From the IMG/VR virus record IMGVR_UViG_3300005066_000231, positions 1 to 7,902 of that record: a stretch of 7,902 nt of DNA. One strand, given 5' to 3'. Below the pieces are notes generated by a model. That model saw only the letters and a list, made by a program, of their open reading frames with translations. It was not told the origin of the DNA and searched no databases. The DNA is from a virus. This document shows, piece by piece, positions 6,863 through 7,773 of this stretch. Position numbers and translations under genes: made by a program. Numbering within the stretch: position 1 is the stretch's first letter; every line of letters begins with the position of its first letter.

Positions 6863-6970
6863 TTAGCCCCCACATTTGGTCATGTGAAAAGCAATGTTGT
6901 TTTTGTGCATTAAACAGAAACACTTTGGACATTCTGCGATGTCTGACTGATGCACGTATTTGATATTCAT
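6863..6970 (-). CDS. 35-aa Cys/His-rich mini-protein, CCHC zinc-finger-like (MNIKYVHQSDIAECPKCFCLMHKNNIAFHMTKCGG)
   Basis: It is not in the ORF track. Its ATG overlaps the stop of 6967..7266 as ATGA. It has a CxxC-x11-HxxxC ligand pattern, and its C-terminal HMTKCGG parallels HFYKCRG of the 32-aa ORF at 7675..7773. Confidence 0.45.
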   Translation of the reverse strand: MNIKYVHQSDIAECPKCFCLMHKNNIAFHMTKCGG

Positions 6971-7266
6971 AGTGATGAACCTTTATTTTCTCTGGCTTTT
7001 TTCTTAAGATCTTCATATTCGCCAAGGCTGTAATATTTACCTTGGAATAAATACAAATATTCAAAATTACCAAATTCATTGAAGTCACCTGCACGTTTAA
7101 TACGCTTAGGTCTGCGTAAACGCTCTCCTAGACGATCAATCGAATCGACTAAGCGTGCAAAGAAGAAAACACCAACAAGTAAACCTAGTAGAAACGAACC
7201 AGTAAAAAGTGGTGCTAGTCCATTTAGAAGCTGAGAGGCTAATTGAGCTTGTTGAAGTTCATTCAT
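6967..7266 (-). CDS. 99-aa single-TM protein with highly charged C-terminal domain (track start 7287 is an alternative)
   Basis: This is an ORF-track ORF with a TM segment LAPLFTGSFLLGLLVGVFFFARLV followed by RLRRPKRIKR and a Tyr/Glu/Lys-rich tail. The ATG at 7266 overlaps the stop of the P-loop ORF (ATGAATGA). There is no SD before the ATG at 7287. Confidence 0.7.
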   Translation of the reverse strand: MNELQQAQLASQLLNGLAPLFTGSFLLGLLVGVFFFARLVDSIDRLGERLRRPKRIKRAGDFNEFGNFEYLYLFQGKYYSLGEYEDLKKKARENKGSSL

Positions 7267-7678
7267 TTCCAAAATCCCGACGACCATTAAAAAGCTTATC
7301 TATATGTAATAATTCACTCAAAACACGAATATCCTTGTGCGCAAATTTTTCGTGTTGAAAGATAAAAACAAGATCGTGGTTTAGCTGATTCTTTCCAAAA
7401 TGTCTGTGAGATATAAGGCTCTTAACTCTGTGATCAATACCTTTAAAACGTTCAGTAAAGTGGTCTATATATTCACAACCGTCATATATAACGAATGCTG
7501 ATTCGGTTATAAGCGTCCAATCACAATCAGGAATAGCCTTAAATGATTTCGGTAAAAAACTTTGATCATTTGTGTTATCTATGATGTTTGTATAAACGGG
7601 TTTACTCTGTAAAAGTGCCATTTCAATTGCAGTACAAGTTTTCCCTGAAATTGGAACACCAGTAATCAAAGTAATCAT
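7259..7678 (-). CDS. Stand-alone Zot-N-terminal-like P-loop protein (paralog of the pI NTPase domain, truncated)
   Basis: This is a 139-aa ORF with a GGGGGA SD about 4 nt upstream. It aligns to the N-terminus of the 396-aa Zot/pI in this window at three segments. These are ITLITGVPISGKT vs ILITGTPGSGKS (Walker A intact), FVIYDGCE vs IIFYDEAQ (Walker B Asp kept, Glu replaced by Gly) and SHRHFG..HDLVFIFQ vs VHRHTGHDIYFITQ. It has no TM or C-terminal domain. Confidence 0.8.
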   Translation of the reverse strand: MITLITGVPISGKTCTAIEMALLQSKPVYTNIIDNTNDQSFLPKSFKAIPDCDWTLITESAFVIYDGCEYIDHFTERFKGIDHRVKSLISHRHFGKNQLNHDLVFIFQHEKFAHKDIRVLSELLHIDKLFNGRRDFGNE

Positions 7679-7773
7679 TTATTCCCCCTACACTTGTAAA
7701 AATGTATGCATAAAATCAATTGACTTTCGAATGAATGACCGCACTTCTTGCACTTAAAATAAGACTGTGGCAT
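7675..7773 (-). CDS. 32-aa classical-zinc-finger-like (CCHC) mini-protein (MPQSYFKCKKCGHSFESQLILCIHFYKCRGNK)
   Basis: It is not in the ORF track. Its stop overlaps the ATG of the P-loop ORF as ATGA (7675-7678). An AGGA lies about 10 nt upstream of the ATG at 7773. The residues fit F-x-C-x2-C-x3-F-x5-L-x2-H-x3-C exactly, which is the C2H2 finger consensus with Cys as the fourth ligand. Confidence 0.5.
   Translation of the reverse strand: MPQSYFKCKKCGHSFESQLILCIHFYKCRGNK

Follow-up and report, generated by a model that had tools for sequence, protein, structure and literature searches.

A chain of four overlapping genes in an Acinetobacter filamentous phage is very probably a mosaic of independent cassettes and includes a widespread mini zinc-finger gene

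We analyzed IMG/VR record IMGVR_UViG_3300005066_000231, a stretch of 7,902 nucleotides (nt; hereafter the window), with a focus on a block of four short open reading frames (ORFs) at positions 6863-7773. In reading order, they encode a 32-amino-acid (aa) zinc finger (ZnF32), a 139-aa truncated pI/Zot protein (sZot), a 99-aa membrane protein (TM99), and a second, 35-aa zinc finger (ZnF35). An earlier note on this DNA had taken the tight coupling of these genes as a sign of fixed stoichiometry and hence of a four-protein complex. Comparison with related phage loci and contigs, which are numbered L001-L119, does not support such a complex: the genes are not co-inherited, the block is crossed by recombination joints, and overlaps of the same kind occur across the genome. 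We found instead that the block is very probably a mosaic of independent cassettes built by recombination and not one four-protein machine. We hold the fuller account, in which this mosaic structure is joined to the functions proposed below, with somewhat better than even confidence, and the functions taken by themselves are tentative. The chief interest of the block lies in a widespread, unannotated zinc-finger gene that is linked to a dif-like site.

A mosaic at the border of two genome modules

Bases 1-91 of the window are repeated identically at 7812-7902; this 91-nt terminal redundancy identifies a complete circular inovirus genome of 7811 nt, opened inside the spacer between the gene for the single-stranded DNA (ssDNA)-binding protein (SSB) and the dif-like site. 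Named homologues belong to Acinetobacter in every case, and the window reads as a complete circular inovirus of about 7.8 kb from that genus. The layout that the earlier note had given for the block was confirmed, as was its location between the SSB/dif region and the coat genes. ZnF32 (MPQSYFKCKKCGHSFESQLILCIHFYKCRGNK; 7675-7773, minus strand) shares an ATGA start/stop overlap (7675-7678) with sZot (7259-7678, minus strand), which overlaps TM99 (6967-7266, minus strand) through ATGAATGA at 7259-7266; TM99 overlaps ZnF35 (6863-6970, minus strand) through another ATGA (6967-6970), and a 3-nt spacer (6860-6862) separates ZnF35 from a 57-aa ORF, p57. Read directly from the sequence, a purine-rich stretch lies 5-10 nt 5' of each start in the block. 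Since the same 4-nt start/stop overlaps join the pVI and pI genes (4604-4607) and the pI gene and a 39-aa ORF (3417-3420), tight coupling is a style of the whole genome. The overlaps would thus reflect the compact operon organization of the entire phage and not a dedicated complex, and in genomes this compact, they are no evidence for a protein complex.

Nucleotide comparison revealed at least three recombination joints, which fall at gene borders of the block. The segment that runs from 2391 to 1 and on from 7902 to 7684, carrying a regulator gene, pII, SSB, the dif-like site, and ZnF32, is 94-96% identical in DNA to L018, and its ZnF32 portion (96%) is contiguous with the pII-SSB module. TM99 (7266-6986) is 88% identical to L018, with homology starting exactly at the ATG at 7266, and between these two segments L018 has an unrelated 104-aa gene (p104) in place of sZot. 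From ZnF35 through pI (6971-3417), the window is 81-86% identical in DNA to L105, L109, and L111, where ZnF35 directly follows SSB. Compared to L011, identity is about 98% over the dif-like site, ZnF32, and the first 57 or so codons of sZot and then about 70%. Because the joints coincide with gene borders and the nearest relatives differ by segment, the four genes have different histories. The phage has both fingers because an L018-like replication module brought ZnF32 and an L105-like structural module brought ZnF35.

A survey of co-occurrence across the relatives revealed that the four genes are distributed independently and do not form a co-inherited module. In most ZnF32 loci, the finger and p57 are not separated by cargo; where cargo lies between a ZnF32-type finger and p57, it is p104 (8 loci), TM99 (7), sZot (2), or a second finger (2). 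Among the eight lineages that carry sZot, five lack any finger and four lack TM99. The p104 family (103-128 aa) occupies the cargo position of sZot in L018 (2744-3058) and L003 (8400-8711), adjoining a TM99-family gene in the latter, and also occurs in L025, L029, L065, L069, L072, L075, and L092; it has no Pfam, PHROG, or PADLOC match.

Stand-alone zinc fingers beside a dif-like site

ZnF32 follows the pattern F-x-C-x2-C-x3-F-x5-L-x2-H-x3-C, with spacing C8-x2-C11-x12-H24-x3-C28, F15 and L21 in register, and Cys instead of His as the fourth ligand. Its matches in the PDB are eukaryotic C2H2 fingers; 17 of 22 diverse family members match Pfam zf-C2H2 (PF00096; best E 4.9e-5), and the family profile matches ZNF568, PRDM9, and designed consensus fingers. 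A degenerate DNA pattern of the ZnF32 core was found in 78 inovirus-sized IMG/VR contigs and in 7 of 185,579 species-representative genomes, all Acinetobacter, where the invariant residues are partly imposed by the search pattern and are not independent evidence. A. baylyi DSM 14961 holds a gene of this type in a prophage (L119). These genes encode 29-34 aa, lie 3' of SSB, and in most loci are followed directly by p57, coat, pIII, pVI, and pI. The family comprises 61 distinct DNA versions, with codon-position entropies of 0.65, 0.55, and 0.95 at positions 1, 2, and 3.

ZnF35 is a C2HC finger (CPKC-x11-H-x3-C, with an FHMTKC motif) whose Cys-His spacer is 11 residues and not 12. Clear homologues were found in L013/L014 and 14 further contigs, with CPKC...FHMT.C invariant, and most of these genes sit in the same slot, directly ahead of p57. 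The earlier note had made much depend on whether the mini-ORFs recur in relatives, and they do, in the 78 contigs and 7 Acinetobacter genomes for the ZnF32 family and in 14 more contigs for that of ZnF35. ZnF35 gave no significant match to Pfam or the PDB, and BLASTP returned no alignment between ZnF32 and ZnF35, while profile alignment of the two families with hhalign gave a probability of 74% (E 2.7e-5) with all four ligands in register. The resemblance noted earlier between the two mini-ORFs is thus real, as both are C2HC fingers by sequence, if distantly alike. Both are Cys-rich and basic (isoelectric points, 9.3 for ZnF32 and 8.5 for ZnF35), and their maximum 19-residue Kyte-Doolittle hydropathy (0.27 and 0.31) indicates no transmembrane (TM) segment. 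The gap between finger and p57 is most often 3 nt. ZnF32 and ZnF35 appear to be two versions of a core gene of the clade, a stand-alone C2HC finger of 29-36 aa that is kept in about 100 related Acinetobacter filamentous phages.

Neither mini-ORF is called by gene callers in L009/L010. The ZnF32 consensus had no tblastn match among 50,697 GenBank phage records, and a limited search of the literature on filamentous phages turned up no zinc-finger protein. In L087 (3378-3583), a gene of each type, ZnF32 and ZnF35, stands in tandem with a 2-nt gap; p57 follows immediately, and other cargo is absent. Other small Cys-rich proteins of related phages include a 40-aa CxxC...CxxC zinc ribbon between SSB and ZnF32 in L011 (7707-7829) and a 58-aa CxxC...H...H protein just 3' of gene I in L001 (11942-12118), and it seems that small zinc proteins turn up repeatedly among Acinetobacter inoviruses.

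The dif-like site (ATTTCGTATAA-TGTATA-ATATGTTAATA; 7801-7828, minus strand) stops 27 nt ahead of the ZnF32 start. Compared to the dif of Acinetobacter ADP1, GATTCGTATAATGTATATTATGTTAAAT (quoted in PMC2731167), 5 of its 28 positions differ, and its XerD arm departs from the host dif. A site of this kind lies 26-27 nt upstream of a ZnF32-type start in 77 of 82 loci and ends 23-27 nt before a ZnF35 start in nine contigs. Across about 86 related contigs (within L022-L113), the dif-like 28-mer stands at a fixed 23-27 nt upstream of the finger start, and the spacer is itself conserved (AATCAATAACTTACG...). We considered the TATAAT-rich conserved stretch upstream of ZnF32 as a promoter and rejected it, as this stretch is the dif-like site. 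Since L009 holds an integrated copy of the phage whose junctions map to an imperfect 51-nt repeat containing the dif-like site, the phage integrates at dif in the XerCD manner, with its attP between SSB and ZnF32.

Upstream of the integrated phage, L009 (1-588) carries the SSB gene and the C-terminal end of pII from a different inovirus, and other genes follow downstream (8395-9555), so that the locus has the look of unlike inoviruses arrayed in tandem at dif. Different inoviruses were found in tandem in L003, L009, L011, L020, and L021. Such arrays would place the replication module of one phage beside the structural genes of another and may drive module shuffling.

A second region of the window also resembles Xer sites. 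Positions 2357-2503 contain two inverted, XerC-arm-like copies of ATTTCGTATAAT, 111 nt apart, and the minus-strand ssDNA of 2340-2520 folds as a long forked hairpin (-29.8 kcal/mol, z = -5.8) in which XerC-like and XerD-like arms pair around a mismatched center, much as in the folded attP(+) of CTXphi. Conserved in L011 and L092, this region could be a second attachment site of the ssDNA type, an origin, or a packaging signal.

The truncated Zot protein, TM99, and the surrounding genome

As the earlier note had supposed, the 139-aa ORF encodes a truncated Zot-like P-loop protein, equivalent to the N-terminal domain of pI/Zot. sZot matches Pfam Zot (PF05707) at 25.3 bits (cutoff, 20.3; E 1.2e-5) and phrog_197 (E 1.4e-12). 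Its AlphaFold model (predicted local distance difference test score, pLDDT, of 79) has as its top Foldseek match in the PDB entry 2R2A (E 2.9e-4, TM-score 0.56), which is the crystal structure of the Neisseria meningitidis Zot N-domain. The protein is 24% identical to the full-length pI/Zot assembly ATPase of the same phage (396 aa; 3417-4607, minus strand; canonical Walker A) and 41% identical to the N-terminus of Pf3 ORF301. In the RefSeq record of Pf3 (L006, NC_001418; 2084-3376 and 3449-4354), ORF301 is labelled "hypothetical" and is a Zot/pI homologue (Pfam E 1e-24), and ORF430, annotated as the assembly protein, is a secretin; ORF301 is therefore the true pI of Pf3.

sZot ends at approximately pI residue 130, some 55 residues short of the end of the pI N-domain, and has neither a TM segment nor a periplasmic domain, its best 19-residue Kyte-Doolittle window (1.08) being the P-loop strand. 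Its Walker A, GVPISGKT (GxPxSGKT), conforms to G/AxxxxGK[ST]. Where the Walker B of both Pf3 pI and the resident pI is YDEAQ, that of sZot is VIYD-G in the window and YD[G/S/A]CE in all 14 sZot sequences, so that the DE dyad is missing. Every g1p protein examined in 10.1101/2022.09.21.508815 has this dyad, and M13 cannot do without the Walker motifs. sZot thus likely retains nucleotide binding, whereas hydrolysis is doubtful. Lacking three defining features of pI (the DE dyad, TM segment, and periplasmic domain), it is best classed, from its sequence, as a truncated variant and not a pI. In some sZot relatives, Walker A reads S[LF]KT, and the resident pIs of those phages also carry this form; we considered the loss of Gly (SLKT/SFKT) as a sign of decay and rejected it, as functional-looking resident pIs have SFKT too.

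Homologues of 127-145 aa occur in Acinetobacter prophages and metagenomes and fall into eight lineages, whose genomic contexts were obtained from exact-protein look-ups. Against 1.84 billion cluster representatives, the sZot profile found only two short clusters; nearly all other matches were pI-sized (about 285-530 aa) and aligned via their N-terminal domain, and the closest named ones were inovirus "Zot/assembly" proteins. Degenerate-pattern scans found 0 relatives in genome and metagenome contig collections and only 2 in IMG/VR, and tblastn against plasmids returned one full-length pI only, at 29% identity. Since dN/dS (the ratio of nonsynonymous to synonymous substitution rates) against seven relatives is 0.07-0.28, with dS saturated, sZot is a functional gene under purifying selection and not debris. 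Among carriers, the median identity of sZot is 69%, compared to 45% for the matching 130 residues of their own pI, and the carriers include phages with unrelated replication proteins, Rep_trans or Phage_CRI. These comparisons suggest that sZot does not co-evolve with the resident assembly machine.

TM99 is, in keeping with the earlier note, a bitopic membrane protein with a single predicted TM helix (residues 17-35). An alternative start, the ATG at 7287, would give 106 aa; the ATG at 7266 is supported because the closest homologues are 99 aa. The flanks of the helix carry net charges of -1 (N-terminal) and +6 (C-terminal), and the positive-inside rule predicts an N-out/C-in topology. In the structure model, a long helix is followed by a basic linker that is disordered, then by a beta-hairpin and a further helix, and Foldseek against BFVD gave no match below E = 1. 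The family comprises 36 protein clusters, all from Acinetobacter or unnamed metagenome sequences, and its hidden Markov model identified 28 loci, sited either in the SSB-to-coat slot (L018, L020, L021, L050, L083, and L097) or after gene I (e.g., L015, L008, L025, L030, L056, and L073). TM99 is a separate family of Acinetobacter inoviruses whose usual site is after gene I.

The neighboring p57 (6686-6859, minus strand) has a hydrophobic C-terminal half, and matches phrog_9110 (1.2e-12) and phrog_4644 "tail protein" (3.2e-7). Nearly all related loci keep it just ahead of the coat gene, and it probably corresponds to the minor tip proteins pVII/pIX of phage Ff.

All long ORFs of the window lie on the minus strand, in the order pII, a 108-aa gene V-like gene, the four-ORF block, p57, Coat_B, pIII-like, pVI-like, and pI/Zot. 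pII (1912-431, minus strand) carries Pfam Phage_CRI and G2P_X_C; the gene V-like SSB protein (94-420, minus strand; phrog_15713, E 3.2e-28) follows pII and is the last gene ahead of the dif-like site on the circle; the major coat protein (6409-6660, minus strand) matches Inovirus Coat_B (PF05356, E 3.7e-9); and Pfam and PHROG annotation identify a 491-aa pIII-like protein and a 105-aa pVI-like protein. Two 39-aa ORFs with a hydrophobic stretch each follow pI (3301-3420 and 3178-3297), the first of which overlaps the pI stop by ATGA; this slot after pI is the TM99-family site in other relatives. An approximately 50-nt palindrome (85% complementary) lies between the coat and pIII genes at 6350-6399. 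The strong terminator of Ff sits between the coat gene and the pIII gene; a simple terminator scan did not flag the palindrome, and a scan of 6300-7902 for consensus promoters and terminators found fewer sites than in shuffled sequence. The same phage is present in JGI metagenome contigs. An Rfam search of the window and a whole-window search for near-identical DNA among the 50,697 GenBank phage records gave no match.

Possible functions and comparison with known systems

The stack occupies the hypervariable stretch where the replication module (pII-SSB-dif) adjoins the structural one (p57-coat-pIII-pVI-pI), with two cargo cassettes, sZot and TM99, lying between the fingers. The finger would be translated together with p57, a coupling that should give roughly equimolar synthesis, and it most likely binds phage nucleic acid, either an ssDNA hairpin or the dif region. 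Such binding would initiate assembly, or permit it, at the tip formed by p57. In Xanthomonas phiLf-type phages, the packaging-signal hairpin is bound by PSB15, which carries it to the inner membrane via a basic segment (bioRxiv 10.1101/2024.03.19.585677), and since it does so in dif-integrating inoviruses, a small nonstructural packaging-signal binder is plausible here; the finger would be PSB15-like in role, not in ancestry. sZot may be a soluble mimic of the pI N-domain that probably binds nucleotide and engages a conserved partner, such as a host factor or a common pI substrate; we favor a conserved partner over the phage's own machinery because sZot is far better conserved than the resident pI. 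It could act as a decoy that interferes with the assembly of rival inoviruses sharing the same dif array. This role in interference is possible, if doubtful; we favor it because tandem arrays of different inoviruses are common, in our own loci and in A. baumannii, where several filamentous prophages per strain are common (PMC11209303), and we rank an auxiliary or regulatory role in the assembly of its own phage second. TM99, with a coat-protein-like topology (N out, basic C-terminus in), may attach to DNA or to acidic lipid where assembly takes place, and its distribution suggests that it is dispensable for many relatives. A bolder combination, which we consider improbable, would make the finger a nucleocapsid-like "reader" that is made 1:1 with p57 and starts assembly by binding an ssDNA hairpin, possibly that at 2357-2503, thereby linking Xer sites to packaging, with sZot as a hydrolysis-dead weapon against rivals.

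Several observations weigh against the mosaic and the functions attached to it. The loci were collected by searching for these same genes, so their frequencies are biased. The mini-ORFs are putatively expressed, and a Shine-Dalgarno-like motif is present in only 11 of 64 distinct ZnF32 leaders. The tandem of both finger types occurs in L087 also, and the two fingers may have distinct jobs and not be simply interchangeable. The invariant C-E after the Walker B Asp of sZot could supply a displaced catalytic Glu, so that some ATPase activity may be retained. The decoy idea predicts a conserved target, for which no candidate was identified, and a literature search on dominant-negative pI mutants was unproductive. 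In two lineages, the window and that of L003/L004, the gene immediately after sZot is of the TM99 family, and these two may be functionally paired; in three of eight lineages (the window, L011, and L013), the gene immediately before sZot is a finger.

These last two adjacencies, along with the overlaps that chain all four genes, are also what speaks for one fixed-stoichiometry complex, for example, an auxiliary assembly or extrusion ATPase anchored by TM99 and capped by fingers, with a role in packaging initiation or exclusion. We consider it very unlikely. Inheritance is independent, with most ZnF32 loci free of cargo, TM99 placed after pI in many loci, and sZot found without TM99 in four of eight lineages; at least three joints cross the block, pVI/pI and pI/39-aa ORF overlap identically, and sZot does not co-diverge with the phage's own proteins. 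sZot and TM99 could instead be a second pI split into an ATPase core and a membrane anchor, as their P-loop-then-TM order mimics the architecture of pI and they are adjacent in two lineages. However, TM99 does not align with the C-terminal part of Pf3 pI, its predicted N-out/C-in topology is the reverse of that of pI, it follows the unrelated 104-aa gene in L018 with homology from its own ATG, and it commonly follows a complete pI, all of which makes a split pI a slim prospect. The reading of sZot as a decaying pI remnant left by recombination and of the mini-ORFs as chance ORFs would fit the truncation of sZot, its lack of the Walker B Glu, its position at recombination joints, and the omission of both mini-ORFs by gene callers. 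It is already largely refuted by the low dN/dS with saturated dS, the length kept at 127-145 aa in eight lineages, and the invariant ligands and coding-type codon-position pattern of the fingers across about 100 loci, and we give it hardly any credence.

The main rival for the function of the fingers, because their spacing to the dif-like site is rigid, is that they are accessory factors of Xer recombination acting on the adjacent attP, in the manner of XafT of TLCphi, and unrelated to assembly. The 23-27 nt spacing in about 86 loci and the departure of the XerD arm from the host dif both fit such a role, and phage-encoded Xer activators are known (PMC9226527). On the other hand, ZnF35 abuts SSB without an intervening dif in L105, L108, L109, and L111, L013 has ZnF35 plus its own tyrosine integrase, the finger is tied even more tightly to p57 (mostly 3 nt), and it bears no similarity to DUF3653/XafT. 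We therefore see a Xer role as a minority prospect, and we prefer the finger as a p57-coupled starter or licenser of assembly within a mosaic block.

Outside Ff, little is known of how filamentous phages choose and start the packaging of their DNA, and it took until 2024 for a first packaging-signal binder, PSB15, to be described; an unannotated finger gene at a fixed distance from a dif-like site and ahead of a tip-protein gene is a concrete candidate for packaging start or Xer control. sZot, as a natural "half ATPase," could reveal a binding partner of the pI N-domain or competition between co-resident inoviruses, a matter of relevance since a single A. baumannii strain often harbors more than one filamentous prophage (PMC11209303). 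The earlier statement that no described module matches the block holds for PHROGs, PADLOC, and NCBIfam annotations. At E <= 0.1, PADLOC-DB gave no match for the four block proteins, p57, or p104, and an NCBIfam search of the block proteins gave nothing useful. sZot, the finger genes, and TM99 have no description in two Acinetobacter filamentous-phage papers, PHROGs, Pfam, NCBIfam, PADLOC, or GenBank phages.

Comparison with known systems bears on each protein. In Ff, pVII (33 aa) and pIX (32 aa) are encoded by tightly coupled genes between gene V and gene VIII. ZnF32 and ZnF35 share this slot, the similar size, and the tight translational coupling; however, pVII and pIX are hydrophobic membrane helices, while the fingers are basic, soluble, and without a TM segment, so p57 is the better counterpart. 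The earlier note had placed the whole block in the slot of genes VII and IX, and the location stands, but p57, regularly accompanied by a zinc finger, is the more plausible occupant of that slot.

sZot shares its P-loop fold and family with Ff pI/pXI, Pf3 ORF301, and PF05707 and aligns with pI at Walker A, at the Asp of Walker B, and at the HRH..HD motif. It lacks the DE dyad of pI, the TM segment, the periplasmic domain, and some 55 residues at the end of the N-domain. A Pf3-type pI is closer to sZot (41%) than is the pI of its own phage (24%). Like Ff pXI, sZot is a partial pI-type protein alongside a full-length pI; unlike pXI, an in-frame pI product that retains the C-terminal half, sZot has a gene of its own in another module, does not arise by internal restart, and comprises the N-terminal core.

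In sequence, ZnF32 fits the pattern of the classical C2H2 (beta-beta-alpha) finger (PF00096), phi-x-C-x2-C-x3-F-x5-psi-x2-H-x3-[H/C], but here a single finger is the entire protein, is encoded by a phage, and has Cys as its last ligand. XafT of Vibrio TLCphi, a Xer activation factor, is likewise a small phage protein near a defective dif-like attP in a Xer-integrating element; it consists of a helix-turn-helix (HTH)-XRE domain and DUF3653 and has no similarity to ZnF32 or ZnF35, which are instead coupled to a structural gene. No match to DUF3653, the domain of PSB15 and XafT, came up when the block proteins and both finger families were scanned with Pfam. PSB15, a DUF3653 protein of 15 kDa whose gene lies on the opposite strand, has no homology to the block proteins, yet it is also a small nonstructural protein of XerCD-integrating inoviruses, and its action matches the division of labor that we propose here between a DNA-binding finger and a basic membrane protein.

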